Source: an uncultured Gammaproteobacteria bacterium
GTDB lineage: Bacteria; Patescibacteriota; Microgenomatia; Daviesbacterales; UBA10151
Assembly: GCA_964551605.1 (NCBI GenBank)
Contig: CAZKCV010000003.1
Location: 15,474-79,473, forward strand
Direction of reading: 5' to 3'
Length of the DNA: 64,000 nt
In this document: positions 10,934-46,925 of the stretch, piece by piece
How positions within the stretch are numbered: the first letter of the stretch is position 1
Layout of the letters: each line of letters opens with the position of its first letter
Notes under the pieces: model-generated
The model's input: only the letters and a program-made list of their open reading frames with translations
Told to the model about the DNA's origin: nothing
The model's database searches: none
Translations under genes and position numbers: made by a program

Positions 10934-11875
10934 CTATAATGGTTTAACCTTTAAATTTCTAATAATAGCTCCATGTTTTAAATGAGCTCTGAATCCGACT
11001 AGGCCATATCCTAATCTAAATGGAATTTTTTGAACGTGACCGGCAAATAATCCACCTACAAGAATGTCTTTGGTTTTTTCTCTGTTGTCTTTAACTCCTG
11101 ACTCTATATGATTTACGTCCACATATACAGGTAGTATCCAGCCAAATATTGGGCTATTTTTGTAAAATATACGAGCAGTATCACCTTTTACTTCCAAGGA
11201 AATCTTAACAAAGTCTGAGAAATCTAAAGGTGGAGTAATTTCCTCTACACTCATTATTTCCCAACCTCCTTTATATCTGACATGTGGTTTTATACTAGAA
11301 ACTAGTACCAATTCTTCTCTCTTATCATCATTTATCCTTATATAACCCTCGGCATTCTCACCAATCTCTATCATAAAATAGTTATCTAAATCTTCAGCCC
11401 TAAAAATGAGACTAATAAGATTTTGGTTCCTAAAGTTATCGGGTTTGAATTTCATTTCAAAACTCATTTTAAAGTCTTTCCAATAATAATTATTTAAAAG
11501 GCATCCAGCACGCGAAGATTTAACAAATAGATACGCATCATCTACGAGTTCTGTTTTTCCATGAAATAGCCACTTATCAGGCCAGTCTTTACTATTAAAC
11601 TGATATGCTTTATTTTTATTCCTATATACATTAAACCAGCAAAACCAATTTTTAATTAATACAAAAAGTAATACCAGCAACAGGAAAAACCCAGCAACTT
11701 CAACAGCGTCTGGCGGATCAATAATATATGGAGAAATTAACTTTAATTGTTCACCAAACAAATTCCCAACCAACCTACCTGTAAAAAGAATGATTAAACC
11801 AGATAAGAACCAAGTGGCTACATCCTTTGTTAATTGCCACTTATCCTTAAAATCTAAAAATCGATTTATATCCAT
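10934..11875 (-). CDS. membrane-anchored hypothetical protein
   Basis: 313 aa with three N-terminal hydrophobic helices followed by a soluble domain. No recognisable motif. Confidence 0.45.
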   Translation of the reverse strand: MDINRFLDFKDKWQLTKDVATWFLSGLIILFTGRLVGNLFGEQLKLISPYIIDPPDAVEVAGFFLLLVLLFVLIKNWFCWFNVYRNKNKAYQFNSKDWPDKWLFHGKTELVDDAYLFVKSSRAGCLLNNYYWKDFKMSFEMKFKPDNFRNQNLISLIFRAEDLDNYFMIEIGENAEGYIRINDDKREELVLVSSIKPHVRYKGGWEIMSVEEITPPLDFSDFVKISLEVKGDTARIFYKNSPIFGWILPVYVDVNHIESGVKDNREKTKDILVGGLFAGHVQKIPFRLGYGLVGFRAHLKHGAIIRNLKVKPL

Positions 11876-11929: not shown

Positions 11930-12195
11930 CTCCCCCGAGAGGATTCGAACCTCTAACCTAGTCATTACTTTAATGGACTATCTCATCACCATAGATTAAA
12001 CCTTTAGGTGGTGGGCGCTTAAAGATGTACTCATCTAGTCTCTGCACCTTCCCCCCGCCAAAGGCGGGAGGCTTGGCTCAGGATTGTCCTTCACTTTCGT
12101 TCAAGACGTTCCCTGAATTCACCCACTTCTCATTCCGATGTTTCCACCGAAAGCTGCTAACACAGTGACCCGCTCTACCATTGAGCTACAGGGGA
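11930..12195 (-). tRNA. tRNA-Asn(GUU) interrupted by a ~194-nt group I intron in the anticodon loop
   Basis: Reverse complement gives exon 1 TCCCCTGTAGCTCAATGGTAGAGCGGGTCACTGT (12162-12195) and exon 2 TAATGACTAGGTTAGAGGTTCGAATCCTCTCGGGGGAG (11930-11967). Joined, these form a canonical cloverleaf with anticodon loop CU-GUU-AA, a TTCGAAT T-loop and a 7-bp acceptor stem with a U1-A72 pair. Confidence 0.75.
11968..12161 (-). ncRNA. group I self-splicing intron (core P, Q, R, S elements present) inserted after U of the anticodon loop
   Basis: The 5' exon ends in U and the intron ends in G (...ATTAAAG), as expected for group I introns. Intron sequence contains GAATTCAGGGAAC (P-like), AATCCTGAGCC (Q-like), GCAGAGACTAGA (R-like, GACUA G-site side) and GAGATAGTCC (S-like). 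Confidence 0.65.
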
Positions 12196-12304
12196 TTATC
12201 AATGTACGGGTGATATTTTATCATTCAATAACGCCGAAATCCACCCTATTATTTTTGCTTAAAATATAGATTGCCGCGCTAATCACTCGCAATGACGGAA
12301 CAGG

Positions 12305-13393
12305 CTATTCCAGGTAATCTCTTAACTTCTTAGCTCTGGTGGGGTGCTTGAGTTTCCTGATGGCTTTGGCTTCAATTTGCCTGATTCTTTCCCTGGTGAC
12401 CCCAAACTCTTTCCCTACTTCTTCCAGAGTCCGCTGTTTACCGTCTTCCAGCCCAAATCGAAGCTGGAGCACCCTTTTTTCCCGGGGTGACAGAGAGTCC
12501 AAAACTTCATCCAGGTGAATCTTTAATAGCTCTCTGGTGGCCTGTTCATCCGGCTGTAATCCCTGATCAGCGATAAAATCCCCCAAGTGGGAATCTTCCT
12601 CATCCCCTACCGGAGTCTCCAAAGAAGTTGGCTCCTGTGAAACCTTAATAATCTCCCGGGCTTTATTCTCATCTATCCCTAATACTTTGGCTACTTCATC
12701 CGGGGTAGGTTCCCTACCCAGCTCCTGCATTAATCTCCGCTGGGTCCGGTTAAACCTATTGATTGTTTCCACCATATGGACAGGGATACGGATAGTCCTG
12801 GCCTGGTCGGCAATAGCCCTGGTAATAGCCTGTCTGATCCACCAGGTGGCATAAGTAGAAAATTTATAACCCCTTCTCCAATCATATTTATCAACCGCCC
12901 TCATCAAACCAATATTGCCCTCTTCAATTAAATCCAACAAGCTCATCCCCCGCCCGACGTATTTTTTGGCTATTGATACTACCAACCGCAAATTGGCACT
13001 GATCAGCTTATCCCGGGCCCTCTTTTCATTTTTTTCTGCTTTTTTGGCCAGCTCTATCTCGTCTTGTGCTGTTAAAAGCGGAATTTTACCGATATCACGA
13101 AGGTATTGCCTAACAGGATCTGTCACCGCACCTCCCTCCAGAGTAGATAATATCTCCAACTCTTTTTCCAACTCAGAAGGGGTTTTACTCTCAGCCTCAA
13201 GTTCTTCCGTAGTAGTTTCAAAAACATCAATGTTTTCCGCAATTAACTTAATATAAAACTCGTCTAGCTCTTTTATTGTTTCCTCCGGCTTTGGGAAAAT
13301 CTGCAAGATCTCTTCTTGGGTCACAAACCCCCGATCCTTACCTAATTTCAGGAGTTTTTTAACGTCTAATTGTACTTGTTTTTTCTTAGCCAT
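12305..13393 (-). CDS. rpoD: RNA polymerase sigma-70 factor RpoD
   Basis: 362 aa. Regions 2-4 are conserved: [18 protein letters not shown], the [24 protein letters not shown] 2.4/3 region, and a C-terminal region 4 HTH ([28 protein letters not shown]). Confidence 0.9.
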
Positions 13394-13395
13394 AT

Positions 13396-13484
13396 ATTTA
13401 ATTAGTCGTCAGCTTTCAGCTTTCAGTCGTCAGATTTTTAATTTTTAGTCTGATAGCTGAAGACTGATGACTGATAGCTACTAG
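13396..13484. repeat. intergenic palindromic element built from inverted arrays of heptamer repeats (NNNTCAG x4 / CTGANNN x4) around an AT-rich centre; copy 1
   Basis: Left arm tcgtcag ctttcag ctttcag tcgtcag; centre atttttaattttta; right arm ctgatag ctgaaga ctgatga ctgatag. The element exactly fills the dnaG-rpoD spacer. A related copy lies at 24300-24380. Confidence 0.5.
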
Positions 13485-15322
13485 AGATTCTTCAACTTTA
13501 CCGACAAGTCTCTAAACCGCCTGTTCAAAGACTCTACTGTTTCCATCTTATCAAATTCCTGGGCATTCTTGATTTCCAGGGAAAGTTTTTCTAGGGATGC
13601 CTTGATTAAGGCTTTTTTAAGTTCTGAAACTACCCCCTCCAGCTCCTTCTGCCAGTATTTTGCATCAATCAGCTTGCTGTCAAGTTCTATTAAGTATAAT
13701 CTATCTATCTCTGAAAGCAACTCTTTTGGCAGGCCGGAGGCAAATTCATTAATATCAAATGCCCTACTCTTAAAAGATATGGAATCCAGGTATAATACCA
13801 GCAAAACAAAAATCTGGCGCCATTTTTCGGCTAAGAATAATGTTTCCGGAAAATTAGGAAAAAAATTGGATTCCTGTGGCGGATGTAGCAGCAAAGTAAT
13901 TAAATATTCCTCCAACAGCTCCCTTCTTGATTTGATAGAAACCACATTATCAGCAGTGGTTTTCTTCAGCAAATTAACATAGCTTTTTGAGGTCTCCTGA
14001 CGGGCTTTTTCTACGCTTTCTCTGATTATTTTTTCTTCGGTTTTCAAGAAGGCTGCCAGCCTTTGGATATAGCGCTCCCTGATTAAGTCATCCGTAATCT
14101 TCGCCCAGACAGGAATCAGCTCTTCCCCGATTCTCCTTAAATCTGCCGCTTTTTTAGTGTCATATCTTTTGGCAATCGAGGCCAAATAATAATCATAAAT
14201 AGGCACGGCTTCCTCCAAGGCCTTCTGCCATAGAGCAGGGTTCTCACGAATGACTTCTGCCGCATCCTTGCCGCCTGCCAATTGAATCACTGACAAATTT
14301 AAGCCGGCTTTATCTGCTATTTCAATACCACGGCGGGAGGCGCTATCTCCGGCCAAATCCATGTCAAAACCCAATTTTAGGTTTTCCGTATATTTTTTTA
14401 ACAGTTCAATTTGCCCTTCAGTTAAAGCCGTCCCCTTTGAGGCCACAATATTCTTAAAACCGGCCTGGAAAGACATAATCATATCCATTTCCCCTTCCAC
14501 CAAAATAGCCTCATTTGTATTCCTAATCTCTCCTTTGGCCAAATTGATACCGAAAAGGAAACTGCTTTTATCAAAAATTGCCGTCTGGGGGCTGTTAATG
14601 TATTTTGGCTCAGCCGGCAGTAAGACCCGGCCGGAAAAACCCCGCAGATGTCCTTTACCGTCAATTAAGGGAAAAGTAATCCGACCTCTAAAACGGTCAT
14701 AAGCGGAGCTTGCGGCTGCACCTAAGCTGCCGGATTTTGATGCTACCCCTAAACCGGAGGCAATAATTTCCTGGTGGCTAAAACCTCTTTTGAGTAAAAA
14801 CTTAGTCAAAGATTCCCAGGAATTAGGGGCATATCCCAAACCAAATTCTTCAATTGAAGAATTGCTGATCCCCCGTTTTCTTAAATATTCCAGGGCATTT
14901 TTACCCAGGGAGTGTTTGGTTAAAATATGGTGGAAAAATTCCTGGGCTTTTAAGTTAGCCTCAAACAACCGTTCCTTGGCATCTTTTTTATCAGAAGTCC
15001 TTTTCTGCAGAGTTATGCCGGCCTTTTTAGCCAACATTTCCAAAGCTTCCTTAAACTCCATGCCTTCCTTCTGCATCAAAAAGGTGAATAAATCGCCCCC
15101 AGCTCCGCAGCCAAAACAATGCCAGATTTGCCGTTCCGGAGAAACCACAAAAGAAGGTGTTCTCTCGTTGTGGAAAGGGCAATTGGCTTTAAAATTTACA
15201 CCTGATTTTTTTAGGGGAAGGTATTCGGAGATTAAATCAACAATATTAATTTTTTCTTTGATCAGATCAACGTCGTCCATAGCTTTGCAATCATCTTGTC
15301 GTCCGAAAAAACGGGACCACAA
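13481..15322 (-). CDS. dnaG: DNA primase DnaG
   Basis: 613 aa. N-terminal zinc ribbon CPFHNERTPSF...CFGCGAGGD, a TOPRIM domain (EAILVEGEMDMIM, DMDLAGD), and a position upstream of rpoD as in the classical dnaG-rpoD operon. Confidence 0.9.
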   Translation of the reverse strand: MWSRFFGRQDDCKAMDDVDLIKEKINIVDLISEYLPLKKSGVNFKANCPFHNERTPSFVVSPERQIWHCFGCGAGGDLFTFLMQKEGMEFKEALEMLAKKAGITLQKRTSDKKDAKERLFEANLKAQEFFHHILTKHSLGKNALEYLRKRGISNSSIEEFGLGYAPNSWESLTKFLLKRGFSHQEIIASGLGVASKSGSLGAAASSAYDRFRGRITFPLIDGKGHLRGFSGRVLLPAEPKYINSPQTAIFDKSSFLFGINLAKGEIRNTNEAILVEGEMDMIMSFQAGFKNIVASKGTALTEGQIELLKKYTENLKLGFDMDLAGDSASRRGIEIADKAGLNLSVIQLAGGKDAAEVIRENPALWQKALEEAVPIYDYYLASIAKRYDTKKAADLRRIGEELIPVWAKITDDLIRERYIQRLAAFLKTEEKIIRESVEKARQETSKSYVNLLKKTTADNVVSIKSRRELLEEYLITLLLHPPQESNFFPNFPETLFLAEKWRQIFVLLVLYLDSISFKSRAFDINEFASGLPKELLSEIDRLYLIELDSKLIDAKYWQKELEGVVSELKKALIKASLEKLSLEIKNAQEFDKMETVESLNRRFRDLSVKLKNL

Positions 15323-19804: not shown

Positions 19805-20581
19805 TTATATATCAAAAAAAAATTTAGTAACAGTTGCTCTATCAAATTCTGTTTTCCAGCTATCATAAGAAGATATATCTTTAATGAAACTTCTTTTCAG
19901 TAACTTAGGATTACTAAAACCAATCCTTTCTCGATATATGTCTATGCTTTCATGATTACTTAAATAAAGCGATCTCTTCATTGTAAGCGTAGGCTTTAAA
20001 CCTAAATTGAGTAAGTTATCTTTTACAAATCTCATAAGTATCATATTTGCATTCCTGAAATTTAATTGTTTGTAAACACGAATCCCCTTTCTACTGTTAT
20101 AAAGCTTAAATGATATTGACCCCTCTGTGTCGAATAACCCACGAACGCATGCTCTACTATATTCTTCTCTCTTCAATATCCAATTTGGCACTACTTTTGC
20201 GTTGGATATAATCCCCATGCTTTTAAGAAAATTTACCGCGATTTTGGAATTTATTCTAATATCTACAGCATTTTCTCTTTTTCTTTTGATTACAGAAAAA
20301 GTGGCTCCAGGAAATAAGTTTCTTGCTAAATTTTCCACATATGATAAATAATCTCGATCCGCGATAAAGTTTAGTGTAATACCTACCTGATAACCAGAAG
20401 CATAGCCATCTCCAAGACAAATACCAATAAATTCTGCTAAAAGTTTACCTTTACGAGGCAGTGTTACTTTATTAAGGCCATTCCTATTATAACCACTTGA
20501 ACATGATAAAGAACAAAATTTACGAATACTTTCTCTTTTCCGATACTCATTCTTACAATGTTTGCAAACACCAAGCATCAT
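19805..20581 (-). CDS. LAGLIDADG-family homing endonuclease-like protein (double motif) with N-terminal Zn ribbon
   Basis: 258 aa. CKHCKNEY...CSLSCSS Zn ribbon; first motif LAEFIGICLGDGYAS; second motif CVRGLFDTEGSISF. Apparently free-standing, not inside an intron or intein. Confidence 0.65.
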   Translation of the reverse strand: MMLGVCKHCKNEYRKRESIRKFCSLSCSSGYNRNGLNKVTLPRKGKLLAEFIGICLGDGYASGYQVGITLNFIADRDYLSYVENLARNLFPGATFSVIKRKRENAVDIRINSKIAVNFLKSMGIISNAKVVPNWILKREEYSRACVRGLFDTEGSISFKLYNSRKGIRVYKQLNFRNANMILMRFVKDNLLNLGLKPTLTMKRSLYLSNHESIDIYRERIGFSNPKLLKRSFIKDISSYDSWKTEFDRATVTKFFFDI

Positions 20582-21883: not shown

Positions 21884-22311
21884 ATAATTGATTTTAAGCC
21901 TATTTTGTGGTAATATACAAACCTGGGGATGTATTGTCTCGACAGAATTGCTCTTTGAAAACTGCAAGCCGAATAGGAAACATTATTCGTTAAATATTGT
22001 TTCAAAACACAAACGGCAATAAAATTGTCGGATCCCTCAAGGGTCAAATTCAAAGCCTTATGGCTTTGAACGGCCAAGGCAGCTTTGCTGCTTTAGCAGC
22101 CTAACAGGGTACTTTAGAAATTGTTCTCTTTCTGACGGAATACTAAAGTACGTACAAAGTCAGGATGCTGTTAATCAGGTGTTGGTTGATCCGTATTAAC
22201 AAAAGACAACTCAATCATTCATTAGTTTTCCTGCTAATTGGTTACAACTAATGAACAAAAATTAATTAGCTAAGCTTGTAGAAGATTTTAAAGTCACAAT
22301 TTTGGACGGGG

Positions 22312-22839
22312 GTGCAAAGCCCCCCATCTCCACCCATTGACTATAACTCCACAGTAATATACGCTGAAGGTGTGAGAAAAAAGTGTCTTAAGTGTTATAG
22401 AATATTTGCTCCATCCAGTAGACACATACTATGTCCATCTTGTAGAGGACAAATATACAAAAAGCCATGTCCTAACTGCGGAAAGCTTATCCAACCAAAA
22501 TCATTTCTTTGTGGCAAATGCGACGGTATGAACCGAAGAAAAGCGGACGGTGATCTTTACACTGATAAGAAAGGTTATATTCTTGTTTTTTCTAGAAATC
22601 ATCCAAGGGCATCAAATCGTTATGTTTTTGAACATATTTTAGTGATGGAGAAAAAGTTAGGAAGATATGTATTACCCAATGAAAATATTCATCATAAAAA
22701 TGGTGTTAAGGATGATAATCGCATTGAAAATTTGGAATTATGGGTCAGACCGCAACCAACAGGGGTAAGAGCAAAAGATGCCATAGTTTGGGCAAAGGAA
22801 ATATTAAAAACTTACGGGAATGACGAAAATCAGTATTAG
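22312..22839 (+). CDS. HNH endonuclease with N-terminal Cys-rich Zn-ribbon repeats (homing-endonuclease-like)
   Basis: CLKCY..CPSCRG..CPNCGK..CGKCDG followed by the HNH core NIHHKNGVKDDNRIENLELW. The ORF as listed starts with GTG inside a G5-N8-C6 hairpin. The true start could be a downstream ATG. Confidence 0.7.
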   Translation: MQSPPSPPIDYNSTVIYAEGVRKKCLKCYRIFAPSSRHILCPSCRGQIYKKPCPNCGKLIQPKSFLCGKCDGMNRRKADGDLYTDKKGYILVFSRNHPRASNRYVFEHILVMEKKLGRYVLPNENIHHKNGVKDDNRIENLELWVRPQPTGVRAKDAIVWAKEILKTYGNDENQY

Positions 22840-23859: not shown

Positions 23860-24306
23860 TCATTCCCTCCCCCGTAGCTCTTGTTCCACTCTGCGCTGAT
23901 GATCTTTTGCTTTAATTAGCTTTCTCTTATCAAATTCTTTTTTACTCTTAGCCAGGCCTATTTCCAGCTTAAACCGGTTATTTTTCTCATAGATTGATAC
24001 CGGTACTAAGGTAGTCCCTTTTCCGGAGACTTTTCCAACCAGGGAGTTTATTTGATCTTTATGCAGTAATAACTTCCGGCTCTTCCCCGCATCATATTCT
24101 TTGTCTGCCGCCTGGTTATACCTGGGGATATTGGCATTGATTAAATAGGCCTCCCCATTTAGTACCCTGATATGACTCTCTCCCAAATCAATTCTGCCGG
24201 CCCGGATTGATTTAACCTCAGCACCTGACAGAACTATCCCGGCTTCCAGATGTTCCAGAATGTGATAATTATGGAGAGCTTTTTTGTTAATAATTCTCAT
24301 AGTCAT
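23860..24306 (-). CDS. smpB: SsrA-binding protein SmpB
   Basis: RIINKKALHNYHILEHLEAGIVLSGAEVKSIRAG...HIRV...EAYLINANIPRY..., the characteristic SmpB sequence. The start may be the second Met (24300). Confidence 0.85.
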   Translation of the reverse strand: MTMRIINKKALHNYHILEHLEAGIVLSGAEVKSIRAGRIDLGESHIRVLNGEAYLINANIPRYNQAADKEYDAGKSRKLLLHKDQINSLVGKVSGKGTTLVPVSIYEKNNRFKLEIGLAKSKKEFDKRKLIKAKDHQRRVEQELRGRE

Positions 24307-24380
24307 CAGTCTTCAGCTATCAGCTTTCAGACTTTTTAATTATATCAGTCTGATGACTGACGACTGACAGCTGATGACTA
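24300..24380. repeat. second copy of the heptamer-array palindromic element (NNNTCAG x4 / CTGANNN x4)
   Basis: tcatcag tcttcag ctatcag ctttcag - actttttaattatat - cagt ctgatga ctgacga ctgacag ctgatga. Fills the spacer between the stop of the 608-aa gene and the smpB start. Its left arm is near-identical to the reverse complement of the right arm of the 13.4-kb copy. Confidence 0.5.
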
Positions 24381-26204
24381 TTTCAAGTCCACAGTATAGA
24401 TCTTGCTACCATCAAGCAGATAAACCTTCTTCCCTTTTTCATCCACCACCAAATCCGTGGCTGCAGCAAATTTAGCACCAGTGATCTGGCCTTTATAAGC
24501 GCCGGTTTTAGTTAAAATAAGTAGCCGGGAATTACCGGAATCCAGCAGGTATAAGTTCTCGGTATCGGATGAGACAAAGAAGCTTTTCGGATCTTTAACT
24601 CCTTTATCTAACCCGCTATAGGCAAAATTATCTTTATCTCCCCTGGTTAAGCGGGTTATCTCTCCGCCAGTTTTAAGCACATAAATGGAGGATTCAATCT
24701 GCATTCTTAAAGCATTACTAAAATCAGCTGTAGTACCACCTTTCGTCAAATACTCTCTTTTGTCGGAATAACCCTCAGAAGTAGCCACATATTTCCAGAT
24801 TTGATTAGTATCCAAAAGATAAACATTGCTGGCAAAGCCATACAGATCTTTAACCCCTTTTAGATCATCATCTTTTTTAGCTACAGTTGTTAACTTGGAA
24901 TTGGTAATATCCACCCTTAAAACACCTTTATCCTTGGAATAGATAAATGCTAACCCACCGTTTAAAGAAACCAAGTTAGCCTCACCCAACTGCTCAGAAC
25001 CGGCCAGGATTTGATTGCTCTTTTTGGCTAAATCTATTACCACCAGTGTTTTTACTCCCGGATCCAATAAAAGCAATTTTTCTCCTGATAAACTCATCCG
25101 GGTAGCCCGGAAATTCTTTTTTATTAAATCCAGATCTAAAAACAGCGGAAATTCGGAAACAGCTGATTCCTGCAAAATGGAAGCGGTTTCGCTCTCGAGT
25201 TGTGTTTTGAAATTTTGGGCTTCAATCTCTTTTGGCTTTAAGCTTAAAGCAGCATCAACCTTTTCTTTAGCCAGATCCAGTTTCTTCTTAGCTTCAGCCG
25301 GGTTTAAGCTGGCTAATCCTTTGGCCGCGTTAAAATTATCCCTGGCTTCCTGCAAACTGCTATTAAACTGTAAATCCCTTTCCCGGTCGCGGGTTGCTTT
25401 ATATTGGTATCCGACACCCAAAGCAATAATTATGATTAAAATAACGGCTGCTGCCAACTTTCCCCTACCGCTGGTGGGAAAACGCGACCTCAGCTTATCC
25501 AAAAGTTTTAATATACCGCTTATAATAGCCTTCAGGAGTAGGGATGGTTTACTTATCCTCTTTTCACTGGCCGGCTCCGTCACCTCTAAATCTTTATTTT
25601 CTGATGAAATAGGTGCAATTTCCACTCTTTCTTCCACTGCCTCAACCAACAAACCTGCTAAACCTTCATTTTCTAAATCCGAGGCTCCGATTTTACTTTC
25701 TACTTCTTCTTCAAAAATCTCCAGCGGTAAATTTAAGGATTTCTCCAGCTCCTCTCCCAAAAACGAGATTAAGCTGCCGGTGGAAAAAAGTACTCTGTCA
25801 CCATCCTGCAAAAACCCGGATATTATTTGGGACGGCGCACCGACTGATAAAAGCGCAGATAAAGTTTCTCCCCGCTTTAGATGCACTGCCACCGCTCCTT
25901 TGCCTATCAGATAGAGAGCCTTGCCGGAAACAGCCGCTAAACACAGATCAAAATCAGATCCTTCAGGAATTTTTTTCCCGGCCTCCTGGAAGGTGGCGTT
26001 TAATTTTTCTGCCGCCGTTCCTTCTGATTCAAAATAAAAATCTTCCAGTTCAGATAAAATTTGTCTGCCGGAGGTAAAAGCATCATCTGAAGTAAGTTCC
26101 AAAACCGCGAAGAATGAATTGTCGTCTTCCCGGACTGAAGAGACCACTTGAGCGGCTTTCTGATCAGTATTTAAGCCAATGACCTGAGCAATTTTAAGTT
26201 TCAT
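24378..26204 (-). CDS. single-pass membrane protein with a cytoplasmic N-terminal domain, coiled coil and a C-terminal beta-rich (propeller-like) extracytoplasmic domain; hypothetical
   Basis: 608 aa; TM helix KLAAAVILIIIIALGVGYQY near residue 245; C-terminal repeats rich in YxL/ LLD / VxD patterns. The N-terminal domain has weak PP2C/SpoIIE-like character (low certainty). Confidence 0.5.
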   Translation of the reverse strand: MKLKIAQVIGLNTDQKAAQVVSSVREDDNSFFAVLELTSDDAFTSGRQILSELEDFYFESEGTAAEKLNATFQEAGKKIPEGSDFDLCLAAVSGKALYLIGKGAVAVHLKRGETLSALLSVGAPSQIISGFLQDGDRVLFSTGSLISFLGEELEKSLNLPLEIFEEEVESKIGASDLENEGLAGLLVEAVEERVEIAPISSENKDLEVTEPASEKRISKPSLLLKAIISGILKLLDKLRSRFPTSGRGKLAAAVILIIIIALGVGYQYKATRDRERDLQFNSSLQEARDNFNAAKGLASLNPAEAKKKLDLAKEKVDAALSLKPKEIEAQNFKTQLESETASILQESAVSEFPLFLDLDLIKKNFRATRMSLSGEKLLLLDPGVKTLVVIDLAKKSNQILAGSEQLGEANLVSLNGGLAFIYSKDKGVLRVDITNSKLTTVAKKDDDLKGVKDLYGFASNVYLLDTNQIWKYVATSEGYSDKREYLTKGGTTADFSNALRMQIESSIYVLKTGGEITRLTRGDKDNFAYSGLDKGVKDPKSFFVSSDTENLYLLDSGNSRLLILTKTGAYKGQITGAKFAAATDLVVDEKGKKVYLLDGSKIYTVDLK

Positions 26205-30159: not shown

Positions 30160-30182
30160 CAATATACAACATCAATTAACCT

Positions 30183-30600
30183 AATTAATCTAATTTCTAA
30201 TTTACCTAAAGAATGACTAATGACGAAATTACCAAAAAGTTTAACCTGGAAGATAGAACAGCTCTATTTGGAGAAAGTGTGATTAAATTTTGCCAAAAGA
30301 TATTCAGGGGACCTTTAACTGATCCTTTGATTATACAACTGGTAAAATGTGGCACCAGTGTAGGTGCTAATTATTGCGAAGCAGATGATGCAGAGAGTAA
30401 AATGGACTTTAAGCATAAAATAGGCATTTGTAAAAAAGAGGCTAGGGAAGCTAAACATTTTATCAGAATGGTTGTAATTGCAATACCTGCTTTAAAAGAA
30501 GAAGCCAAACCACTATGGCAAGAAGCGAAAGAATTAAACTTGATATTTAACGCTATTTATAAGAAAGTAAAATAAGGAAGAATTAATCTAATTTCTAATT
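30183..30600. mobile_element. putative insertion cassette: four-helix-bundle gene bounded by perfect 20-bp direct repeats (AATTAATCTAATTTCTAATT)
   Basis: Identical 20-mers at 30183-30202 and 30581-30600 flank the 30213..30575 CDS. An inverted partial copy (aattagaaatt) lies at ~30665-30675. Confidence 0.45.
30213..30575 (+). CDS. four-helix-bundle protein (23S rRNA intervening-sequence protein family, TIGR02436-like)
   Basis: 120 aa. LVKCGTSVGANYCEADDAESKMDFKHKIGICKKEAREAKHFIRM matches this family. Confidence 0.75.
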   Translation: MTNDEITKKFNLEDRTALFGESVIKFCQKIFRGPLTDPLIIQLVKCGTSVGANYCEADDAESKMDFKHKIGICKKEAREAKHFIRMVVIAIPALKEEAKPLWQEAKELNLIFNAIYKKVK

Positions 30601-30675
30601 ATTCTAATTGATCTAAACTTAGACATTTGATCATTGGGATTTATTTAGAAATTAGTAATTAAAAATTAGAAATTT

Positions 30676-30992: not shown

Positions 30993-31022
30993 AAGGGTAC
31001 AGGGTACAGGGTACAGGGTACA
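30993..31022. repeat. tandem heptamer repeat (GGTACAG x4)
   Basis: gggtacagggtacagggtacagggtacag lies between two pilin genes. Confidence 0.5.
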
Positions 31023-31037
31023 GTTAAGAAAGCTTTT

Positions 31038-39110: not shown

Positions 39111-39454
39111 ATAACTCCTGCTCGGGATAAAAAATTGTGGTCGGTCTCCTGACTTTACCCTTCGATTCCACTCAGGGTTATAACAGTTGCGGCACAGTCT
39201 CTGATTTACACAGAGTTCCCTTAAGAGCGAAGCTTGCAAGCTCCGCTTATTGTACTTTGAGTTCAATTCTGAACCTAGTACACCACCATCCCAGCATAGC
39301 CGGAGAATTATCAATTTTCAAGTCCCAATTTTCTCCACTGATTTAATCTGATCTTGTCCGAATTGATCTGTTTTGTGCCGCTTGCCAATACTTTTTTCAC
39401 GTTGTATAACAGTGATGAGTTCGTAGTTGGTAGTTCGTAGTACTAAGTTATAAA

Positions 39455-45742: not shown

Positions 45743-45824
45743 GCGTATGGTGAATAGCGTACAGCGTATAGTTAAAGAAAAATTATGCGCTTACAACTAT
45801 ACCCTAAACGCTATACGCTAAACC

Positions 45825-46925
45825 CTAGTTAAGTCTCACCGGCATTACAATATATTCCAATCCTTCAACACCCATTGGCTTAATCAAAGCCGCTGACAGA
45901 GCTCCGGAAAATTCAATCATAATCTGGGTCGCAGGAGCGTTAGAGATAGCATCCAATAAAAACTTGGTATTAAAGGCGATTTTTAACTCTTCTCCTTCAA
46001 TTTCTCCTTCTATTTCATTTTCCTGGCTGCCCAGTTCCTTAGCCTGTGATTCCAGCTTTAATATGCCTTTTTTAGTGGTTAAAACTACTACATTAGCTTC
46101 ATTTTTGGCAAAAATAGCTGCCAGTTTACTGGCTTTTAATAATTCCTCTTTCCCAATCATTGCCCTGGCCACAATCTTTTCCGGGATTATCTTTTCCCAA
46201 GCCGGGAATTGGCCTTCAATTAATCGGGAAGAAACAATCGTATTTCCCAGCTTAAATACTACCTGATTTTGGTTCTGACTGGTGGCAATACCAACCTCTT
46301 CAACTTCTTCTTCAGCTATAATCCGCAGTAATTCCTCAAACGTTCTCCGGGGAATTAAACTCCTAAACTGATCTTTGCCTTTAGGTAATTCAAACCGGCG
46401 GTGGGCTAGCCTAAATCCATCTGTGGCTACAAAATCCAACTTGCCATTAGACACTTCAGTCAATATACCGGTCAAAATCGGCCTGCCCTCATCCACCGCC
46501 GAGGCAAACAGAATTTGCGATGAGATTAAAAAGGCTTCCTTAGGAAAACTGATGCCAGTACCTTCAGCCAAAGGGATAGCCGGAAATTCAGCAGCGGCAA
46601 TCCCGTTAATACTGGCCTTTAGTTTACCGGACTGCACAGTTAAAACTTCATCTTCTGATGTCAAAATCACCTTAGCTTGTCCTAAACCGGAAATAAGCTC
46701 TACTAAAGTCTTGGCAGGCACAGTAACTTCTCCGGGAACTTCAATTTCCGTATTAATATACTTAATTACCCCGATTTCTAGATTTGTGGCTGCTATCTTT
46801 AATTTCTGTCCTTCAGCGGAAAGTAAAATATTATCCAGTACCGGCAAGGTGGAACGGATACCAACTGACCGGGCCACAGCTTGCAATGCAGGCAGTAAAT
46901 CTTGTTGTAAACATGTAAATTTCAT
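45825..46925 (-). CDS. dnaN: DNA polymerase III beta subunit (sliding clamp) DnaN
   Basis: 366 aa. MKFTCLQQDLLPALQAVARSVG is the classical DnaN N-terminus; three-domain length. Confidence 0.9.
   Translation of the reverse strand: MKFTCLQQDLLPALQAVARSVGIRSTLPVLDNILLSAEGQKLKIAATNLEIGVIKYINTEIEVPGEVTVPAKTLVELISGLGQAKVILTSEDEVLTVQSGKLKASINGIAAAEFPAIPLAEGTGISFPKEAFLISSQILFASAVDEGRPILTGILTEVSNGKLDFVATDGFRLAHRRFELPKGKDQFRSLIPRRTFEELLRIIAEEEVEEVGIATSQNQNQVVFKLGNTIVSSRLIEGQFPAWEKIIPEKIVARAMIGKEELLKASKLAAIFAKNEANVVVLTTKKGILKLESQAKELGSQENEIEGEIEGEELKIAFNTKFLLDAISNAPATQIMIEFSGALSAALIKPMGVEGLEYIVMPVRLN

Follow-up and report, generated by a model that had tools for sequence, protein, structure and literature searches.

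Two spacers of a 64,000-nt stretch of a Candidatus Daviesbacteria genome (Patescibacteria, or candidate phyla radiation, CPR), hereafter the window, hold copies of one palindromic element: some 80 bp long and able to form a hairpin, each copy runs from four heptamers NNNTCAG through an AT-rich centre of 16-19 nt to four heptamers CTGANNN. The assignment to Daviesbacteria follows from homologues of SmpB, RpoD and the four-helix-bundle protein encoded in the window. Elements of this kind are real, abundant across phyla, polar in layout, symmetric with respect to transcription and distinct from intrinsic terminators; at one orthologous site they are gained and lost, and a distant relative carries a near-identical copy there. 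We read the copies as DNA-level repeats, comparable to repetitive extragenic palindromes (REPs) and bacterial interspersed mosaic elements (BIMEs), to the hairpins formed by REP doublets (REPINs) or to MITEs (miniature inverted-repeat transposable elements), which would colonise stop-to-start spacers, replace one another there and leave again, with RNA hairpins as a consequence. We give this reading a probability of about 45%, and favour it because of the strand symmetry of the elements, their background-like gene contexts, their turnover with an incongruent near-identical copy and their family resemblance within a lineage.

Copy 1 has its left arm at 13406-13433 (+; tcgTCAG cttTCAG cttTCAG tcgTCAG), its 16-nt centre, atttttaatttttagt, at 13434-13449 and its right arm at 13450-13477 (+; CTGAtag CTGAaga CTGAtga CTGAtag). 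It is housed in the 87-nt spacer (13394-13480, minus strand) between dnaG (13481-15322, minus strand, with its TAG stop at 13481-13483) and rpoD (12305-13393, minus strand, with its ATG at 13393-13391), and stops 12 nt (ctaattaaatat) short of the rpoD start codon. Copy 2 has its left arm at 24303-24330 (+; tcaTCAG tctTCAG ctaTCAG cttTCAG), a 19-nt centre at 24331-24349, which reads ACTGATATAATTAAAAAGT on the sense (minus) strand, and its right arm at 24350-24377 (+; CTGAtga CTGAcga CTGAcag CTGAtga), the whole palindrome (ATAGTCATCAG...CTGATGACTAT) spanning 24299-24381 on the minus strand. Upstream of smpB lies an ORF of 608 aa (24378-26204, minus strand) that has no match in Pfam or NCBIfam and is at most a candidate rnr. 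Gene callers start smpB at an ATG that belongs to the last heptamer, which gives a protein of 148 aa; because SmpB orthologues have 146 aa, the true start is the second ATG (24300-24298), and copy 2 is therefore the entire 77-nt spacer. On the sense strand of this copy, the TAG stop of the 608-aa ORF (24380-24378) falls within the 5' base of the stem, facing the AT of the smpB ATG (24300-24299) within the 3' base. The sequence-only reading, made before this analysis, held that each copy exactly fills the spacer between two co-directional genes, which is correct for copy 2 once the smpB start is corrected, but not for copy 1, where the 12 nt before the rpoD ATG are left over.

The same reading had described four heptamers ending in TCAG, an AT-rich centre and four heptamers starting with CTGA, and this arrangement was confirmed at both loci, as was its non-random, palindromic and heptamer-periodic nature. 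The three-unit pattern TCAGNNNTCAGNNNTCAG has eight matches in the window, all eight in the two loci, and none in 100 shuffled sequences; its two-unit form has 13 matches against 1.5 expected, 12 of them at the two loci. Period-7 rows reported by Tandem Repeats Finder cover 13409-13426, 13450-13479 and 24350-24379, that is, head-to-tail units in at least three copies. RNA folding, which had been proposed as a check, predicts strong hairpins at the loci (-24 to -41 kcal/mol, z -3.4 to -7.9) when G-U pairs and slips of register are allowed. In strict register, Watson-Crick pairing in the window copies involves 0.17 of three spacer positions, roughly in line with the earlier statement that the 3-nt spacers do not pair; in the class as a whole, 1.5 of three positions are complementary from arm to arm compared with 0.93 after shuffling.

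The two copies belong to a far larger population. A scan of one genome per species for three TCAG units, a gap of 8-38 nt and three CTGA units gave at least 120 matching stretches in about 20 phyla, whereas the chance expectation for this 24-base pattern, by our estimate under uniform base composition, is about 0.07. The matches listed come from Acidobacteriota, Gemmatimonadota, Nitrospirota, Planctomycetota, Bacteroidota, Chloroflexota, Desulfobacterota, Verrucomicrobiota, Actinomycetota, Deinococcota, Pseudomonadota, Omnitrophota, Elusimicrobiota, Chlamydiota, Myxococcota, Bacillota, Cyanobacteriota, Poribacteria, Binatia and Patescibacteria. Cultured carriers include Geothrix alkalitolerans SG263 (L006), Microcystis and Nostoc. 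The element is thus not limited to two loci, as had first been thought, and the possibility that only two copies exist, which would have spoken against it, is decisively dispelled. Viral contigs of IMG/VR hold at least 120 further stretches with the TCAG-first pattern. One 34-kb phage-like contig, IMGVR_UViG_3300045936_000120 (L146, L165, L166), has about 14 TCAG-type palindromes with the common loop consensus TAAACCGC and also encodes exonuclease, excisionase-like and O-like replication genes, and at L161 a conserved GGAG-N8-ATG ribosome-binding module follows each element.

Across the class the architecture is stereotyped. Arms have four units, mostly three to five, and their unit counts differ by at most one in 78% of elements; the median loop is 13-18 nt long and AT-richer than the flanks (48% compared with 60.5% GC), and the median predicted folding energy is about -38 kcal/mol. 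The loci with matches contain 295 arrays of period 7, against 2-20 for each of the other periods from 5 to 11, and 96 of the 127 arrays outside the seed elements are built from other heptamers, many as inverted pairs. In a Chloroflexia metagenome-assembled genome (DASVQO010000194; L083, 680-6840), every spacer of a ribosomal-protein operon (S17-L14-...-S8-L6-L18) holds a heptamer palindrome, mostly of AATTCTT/AAGAATT units and sometimes of others. Fully complementary spacers make up only 11% of the class, and only 21-28% of neighbouring spacers match each other exactly (11% in the window copies); it is therefore the 4-nt core that is kept, and not the whole unit. At one locus (L190) the two arms have been homogenised separately. 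Upstream stop codons are in phase with the array, ending 3 or 10 nt before a TCAG core, and 48% of them are TAG; start codons lie close to the 3' edge of the element.

The class has a strong polarity. The element is its own reverse complement in layout, and the CTGA-first arrangement would be a physically distinct element. Set against the TCAG-first stretches of IMG/VR (at least 120) are only 7 that are CTGA-first, and the TTAG/CTAA core, which is independent of TCAG/CTGA, obeys the same rule with 98 TTAG-first and 8 CTAA-first stretches, so that the polarity ratio ranges from 12:1 to more than 17:1. Stop codons in three frames were considered as the cause and fit TCAG/CTGA only; since TTAG/CTAA arrays have stop codons in each arm whichever way they are oriented, stop-codon content cannot explain the polarity. 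The 38 inverted pairs that have other cores show enrichment of GG, GGA, GT and AG in their 5' arms and of CC, TCC, AC and CT in their 3' arms, GGA being split 14:1 between the two. A simple purine/pyrimidine rule for the arms was abandoned, given the pyrimidine-rich spacers of TCAG arms and the G-rich 5' arms of other families, and scans for GACT/AGTC were set aside as controls for overlapping the TCAG family and hence not being independent of it. Polarity and core conservation together imply that some factor recognises the element.

Turnover was followed at the junction of the upstream gene (X) and smpB, compared in the window and in eight other Daviesbacteria. The spacer is 9 nt long (CATTTGCGT or CATTTGCTT) in L360, L361 and L364 and 4 nt in L366; in L362 it is a 68-nt palindrome of 4+4 heptamers with a CTAG core, in L363 a 124-nt palindrome of the form (NNNNTAG)8...(CTANNNN)8, in L365 (1368-1500) an unrelated hairpin repeat of 133 nt that seems to have been inserted into the 9-nt spacer, and in L369 a TCAG element nearly identical to copy 2 of the window. 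Between L369 and copy 2, 56 of 57 arm positions agree, and the loop is conserved in its first half but diverged in the rest, while flanking DNA is 84% identical to the window in L360 and L361 and only 67-74% in L369. The tree of the flanking proteins is (L369,((L362,((window,(L360,L361)),(L364,L365))),(L363,L366))), so the closest relatives, L360 and L361, are free of the element and the outgroup, L369, carries it. Because the 9-nt spacer is common to the clade of the window, the window element is most simply a secondary gain. Vertical neutral descent of copy 2 is excluded: either near-identical elements reach the same junction independently, or very strong selection at every position of the arms is combined with several precise losses. 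The repeat in L365 (GTCATTGCGAG...GCAATC type, with an AT-rich loop) has similar copies downstream of smpB in L361 and L363, and is a second small hairpin-repeat family in these genomes. Two Logan contigs from other samples (L367 and L368) have position 1 inside the hairpin of copy 2; the elements therefore fragment short-read assemblies.

At the other locus, the dnaG-rpoD spacer is identical at 87 of 87 positions in JACPDA010000004 (L370). There, however, a 1.75-kb tract of 100% identity (window 12302-14100 and L370 9300-11020) runs from the 3' end of dnaG across the element and through the whole of rpoD and is bounded by DNA of about 80% identity, which indicates a recent recombination or transfer between lineages; the identity of copy 1 is uninformative because the copy lies inside this tract. 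In relatives with at most 71% RpoD identity, the dnaG-rpoD spacers are short and hold no element. The pilus operon of JACPDA01 (GCA_016184225.1; L068) has two further TCAG copies, 79-84% identical to those of the window and with the common loop motif ACTTTTAATT, and the lineage DNA examined (64 kb + 21 kb + 8 kb) holds five copies with a mutual identity of 75-84%.

These comparisons bear on the idea that the palindromes are a passive by-product of mutation, in which slippage in steps of 7 nt and intrastrand template switching into inverted partners would produce them with neither function nor mobility, accumulating wherever non-coding DNA is tolerated. Heptamers are over-represented in bacteria and slippage has been proposed as the reason (Mrazek 2007, in the citations given by PMC4679880 and PMC4692102); single genomes contain many different heptamers, arms are homogenised separately, and different heptamer palindromes occupy the same orthologous spacer. 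Such a process should nevertheless not give a polarity of 12:1 to more than 17:1, nor keep a 4-nt core while neighbouring spacers differ (21-28% identical), nor cluster tightly at 4+4 units, nor retain 98% identity between lineages with flanks at about 70%, and we regard it as an improbable explanation of the class.

Elements between co-directional genes show no bias toward the transcribed strand in any of three tests: the folding energy is more favourable on the sense strand in 38 and on the antisense strand in 41 (p=0.88), the non-Watson-Crick spacer positions of the sense strand comprise 155 that are G-U-compatible and 166 that are A-C (p=0.58), and 3'-arm spacers show no difference in content between the strands. 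Selection at the RNA level thus left no signal in folding energy, in G-U versus A-C counts or in spacer content. The flanking genes are co-directional in 159 cases, convergent in 65 and divergent in 38. In bacteria, about 70% of gene pairs are usually co-directional. Judged by that general figure, the gene contexts are close to background, with a modest under-representation of divergent, promoter-containing spacers.

The symmetry weakens the principal rival to a DNA-level origin, a functional intercistronic RNA hairpin whose 5' arm would present NAG every 7 nt, to be read by an oligomeric RNA-binding protein (HutP-like, XAG-N4) or melted by the terminating ribosome, and which would set downstream expression through translational coupling, processing or stability. 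Stops in phase at the 5' edge (3 or 10 nt before the core, 48% TAG), starts near the 3' edge and the opposition of stop and start at the base of the stem in copy 2 all suit this proposal, as does the scarcity of Shine-Dalgarno-like motifs (only 10 of 66 window ORFs). The T-Y-A-G core in the first-transcribed arm would fit co-transcriptional binding, and the proposal explains both polarity and core conservation well; HutP is the closest mechanistic precedent (PMC2425495), TAACTGA repeats lie just upstream of Beggiatoaceae start codons (PMC4679880), and conservation of 56 of 57 arm positions, with flanks at about 70%, would be expected of such a hairpin. The proposal is at odds with the lack of sense-strand bias in G-U pairs, folding energy and spacer content, with convergent (65) and divergent (38) occurrences about as frequent as the usual background predicts, and with closest relatives that do with a 9-nt spacer. 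No HutP-like gene is adjacent to the copies, no RNA-binding protein of such specificity is known that is common to some 20 phyla and phages, and at L190 the sense-strand stem is weakened by A-C mismatches. We therefore hold an RNA function of this kind to be possible though unlikely, and rank pure slippage, DNA-binding or primase arrays and terminators below it.

Strand symmetry is also what would be expected of an array that binds protein as DNA, with CT(G/A)A units facing outward around a meltable AT-rich centre; candidate ligands would be DnaG primase, recognising initiation sites in a G4-type single-strand signal, or a nucleoid or recombination protein. The trinucleotides at which DnaG primase initiates are CTG in E. 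coli and CTA/TTA in Firmicutes. The polarity is set relative to the centre of the palindrome with the cores CTGA and CTAA, loops are AT-richer than flanks and the elements abound in phage-like contigs, all of which would agree with such binding. A spacing of 7 bp is out of helical phase for binding to double-stranded DNA, though, other heptamer families do without CTR cores, and AT-rich loops are to be expected of any intergenic DNA, which leaves this a rather improbable candidate, placed slightly behind passive mutation.

An intrinsic, possibly bidirectional, terminator or attenuator is the least credible of the alternatives, and we consider it very improbable. The strong predicted hairpins (class median about -38 kcal/mol) and the excess of convergent over divergent contexts (65 and 38) would speak for termination, but a T-run follows only 4 of 80 elements, a terminator scan was negative at both loci, elements occur inside operons that must be co-expressed, such as the ribosomal-protein operon, and canonical terminators have much shorter stems and loops much smaller than the 13-19 nt seen here. 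The view that this is no simple terminator was therefore well founded in the sequence-only reading.

How a DNA-level palindromic repeat could produce these patterns may be pictured as follows. A copy in this class comprises about four NNNT(C/T)AG heptamers, 13-19 nt of AT-rich centre and then about four CT(G/A)ANNN heptamers; units within each arm would be expanded and homogenised in steps of seven bases, slippage shaping the individual copies. For its spread, the element would need a factor able to recognise both the hairpin and the T-Y-A-G/C-T-R-A cores, candidates being an HUH/Y1-type enzyme or a replication or priming protein. [quoted passage not shown] The hairpin may then act, or simply be tolerated, as an intercistronic element through 3'-end protection, processing or translational coupling. 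More speculatively, and in our judgement doubtful as a whole, the cores, the 7-nt spacing, the 4+4 format and the polarity might be the footprint of an unrecognised machinery that reads or writes hairpins in some 20 phyla and their phages, be it a hairpin-specific mobilising enzyme that targets stop-start junctions, an oligomeric RNA-binding regulator of NAG-N4 with a global action on operon spacers, or clustered primase initiation sites.

Several observations weigh against a mobile DNA-level repeat. Neither a target-site duplication nor a sharp terminal boundary could be made out, no transposase turned up among the about 16 window ORFs scanned, the similarity between copies at L190 fades inside the arrays, and the filled site of the window does not equal the 9-nt empty site plus a simple insert. 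Copies within one genome are 75-84% identical, unlike young MITE families, and REPs and MITEs are not known to have a conserved 4-nt core that recurs at 7-nt intervals between free spacers, a layout that looks more like a protein-binding array. Finally, the conservation of the arms between the window and L369, which includes unpaired positions, could equally reflect strong purifying selection, and homologous recombination does occur between Daviesbacteria lineages.

Other identities were tried for the two copies and given up. Against Rfam 15, the loci had no match at the gathering score, only sub-threshold matches to generic, miRNA-like hairpins. A K-turn or C/D-box reading of CUGA/UGAUGA failed for want of the required GA in the 5' arm, Rfam offering only sub-threshold snoRNA and miRNA noise. 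A promoter in the loop of copy 2 was suggested by TGATATAAT on the sense strand, which is conserved in L369; the promoter scan gave no -35/-10 pair, and TGATATAAT is absent from the loop of copy 1 and from the GC-rich loops found elsewhere. Duplication of a TA target site was considered for the TA-TA flank of the Daviesbacteria copies, a flank that is not consistent across the class. A BLAST search of one element against cultured phages returned no match, the scan of about 16 window ORFs against Pfam or NCBIfam revealed no transposase, and exact TAACTGA doublets are absent from the window, with none found even when two mismatches are allowed.

Heptamer arrays of other kinds are also plentiful in the window, where, depending on the threshold, 13-26 arrays of period 7 occur where 0.2-3 would be expected; multiples of three aside, the other periods are at background level. 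An inverted palindrome of CTAATTN ... NAATTAG units (30581-30674, +) takes up the whole spacer that separates a PF05635 four-helix-bundle gene from a gene resembling a pilin of type IV secretion systems (T4SS), and a direct CTAATTN-type array (30174-30210, +) lies immediately upstream of the PF05635 gene. With the direct array before it and the palindrome after it, this gene, which belongs to the 23S rRNA intervening-sequence proteins, sits between CTAATTN arrays (30174-30674), a position that resembles that of a gene within one arm of a heptamer palindrome. Homologues of its product are 75-89% identical across Daviesbacteria, Levybacteria, Curtissbacteria and Gottesmanbacteria; an association of heptamer arrays with PF05635 genes was dismissed, as phmmer and an iterated hidden Markov model found no homologue in about 369 related loci. 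A palindrome of the AGCGTAT ... ATACGCT type (45743-45831, +) lies at the 3' end of dnaN between convergent ORFs, and a direct array of 4.3 copies of AGGGTAC (30994-31023, +) fills a stop-to-start spacer. Among neighbouring features, a Group I intron match (RF00028, 69 bits) lies at 11958-12169 (minus strand), just downstream of rpoD, where ARAGORN finds no tRNA and the adjacent 313-aa ORF (10934-11875) has no Pfam match. A tmRNA gene (21925-22335, +) is found about 1.5 kb from smpB, a LAGLIDADG-domain ORF (19805-20581, minus strand) stands beside a tRNA cluster, and a cobalamin riboswitch lies at 39122-39259 (minus strand).

Heptanucleotide repeats have been known as the most over-represented long simple repeats of bacterial genomes since 2007, without an accepted function or origin. 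The present analysis defines for them a stereotyped and searchable architecture of 4+4 units with a T-Y-A-G/C-T-R-A core and an AT-rich centre, and places three constraints on any explanation: strict polarity, symmetry with respect to transcription, and rapid gain, replacement and loss at one stop-start junction, where a distant relative has a near-identical copy. In practical terms, these elements break short-read assemblies and mislead the calling of start codons, as for smpB here.

Among known systems, the heptamers themselves have the clearest precedents. TAACTGA direct repeats occur in intergenic regions of Beggiatoaceae, cyanobacteria and Bacteroidetes, where their function is not known (MacGregor 2015, PMC4679880); like the present elements, they are tandem units of period 7 with a CTGA core, often right upstream of start codons and in ribosomal-protein operons, and are patchily distributed across phyla. 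They consist of one fixed heptamer, however, and are nearly all direct, with a single indirect repeat reported, whereas here the 3-nt spacer is free and the units form 4+4 inverted hairpin pairs; polarity, strand symmetry and turnover at an orthologous site are not described there. In Xanthomonas, 70-75 of the intergenic GGGAATC arrays occur in convergent inverted pairs that can fold into stem-loops (Rehm et al. 2015, PMC4692102). With these pairs, with the cyanobacterial short tandemly repeated repetitive sequences (STRR) and with long simple sequence repeats (LSSR) our elements share the intergenic heptamer array whose length varies between related genomes. The GGGAATC arrays are G-rich, quadruplex-capable and restricted to one genus, unlike the TCAG/TTAG families, which span about 20 phyla with a defined polarity. 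Measured against heptanucleotide tandem repeats in general (STRR, LSSR or TAACTGA type), both window copies have period 7 and a non-coding, stop-to-start placement, and differ in lacking a fixed heptamer. Heptamers rank as the most over-represented long simple repeats in many bacteria, with polymerase slippage proposed as their source (Mrazek 2007, through PMC4679880 and PMC4692102), and published reporter experiments in Nostoc hint at regulation by them.

The HutP-hut RNA system of Bacillus, in which XAG recurs at 7-nt spacing in two sites joined by a linker of 12-17 nt between stop and start codon (PMC2425495), partly resembles the elements in its NAG triplets every 7 nt, its two blocks of at least three and its hairpin between stop and start. 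In that system the RNA carries both blocks as direct repeats and then a U-tract terminator, and the gene for the binding protein lies just upstream; the present elements instead have a second block that is the reverse complement of the first, they lack a U-tract, and no HutP gene adjoins the copies, whose upstream neighbours are dnaG and the unannotated 608-aa ORF. In the window copies, CAG recurs at 7-nt intervals in the 5' arm and the loops measure 16-19 nt. NAG is in phase in the 3' arm only in an AGCT-type subfamily (about 20-23% of spacers).

REP doublets, which form hairpins as REPINs (Bertels and Rainey 2011, PMC3116915), are likewise imperfect extragenic hairpins of about 70-100 nt with two inverted units and a less conserved spacer, lie in transcribed intergenic regions, and occur as lineage-specific families whose presence varies among relatives. 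REPs have no internal 7-nt periodicity and are marked by large near-identical families, a link to the REP-associated tyrosine transposase (RAYT) and a 5' GTAG motif, none of which was found as a family trait in the lineage DNA and the about 16 window ORFs examined, a REP-type GTAG flank occurring only at copy 1, with ATAG at copy 2 and at the L068 copies. MITEs have sharp terminal inverted repeats and a target-site duplication, whereas similarity between the present copies fades within the arrays. The palindrome of 4+4 T-Y-A-G/C-T-R-A units appears undescribed in the searchable, incompletely covered literature, as do its occurrence across about 20 phyla and in phage-like contigs, its polarity, its lack of bias toward the transcribed strand and its turnover at one orthologous junction. 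Heptamer over-representation, STRR, TAACTGA direct repeats and inverted GGGAATC pairs are already published; the element, at first taken for a novel kind, is better seen as one family inside a widespread class of intergenic heptanucleotide arrays, one whose behaviour, as the sequence-only reading had suspected, resembles that of REP/BIME-type repeats.

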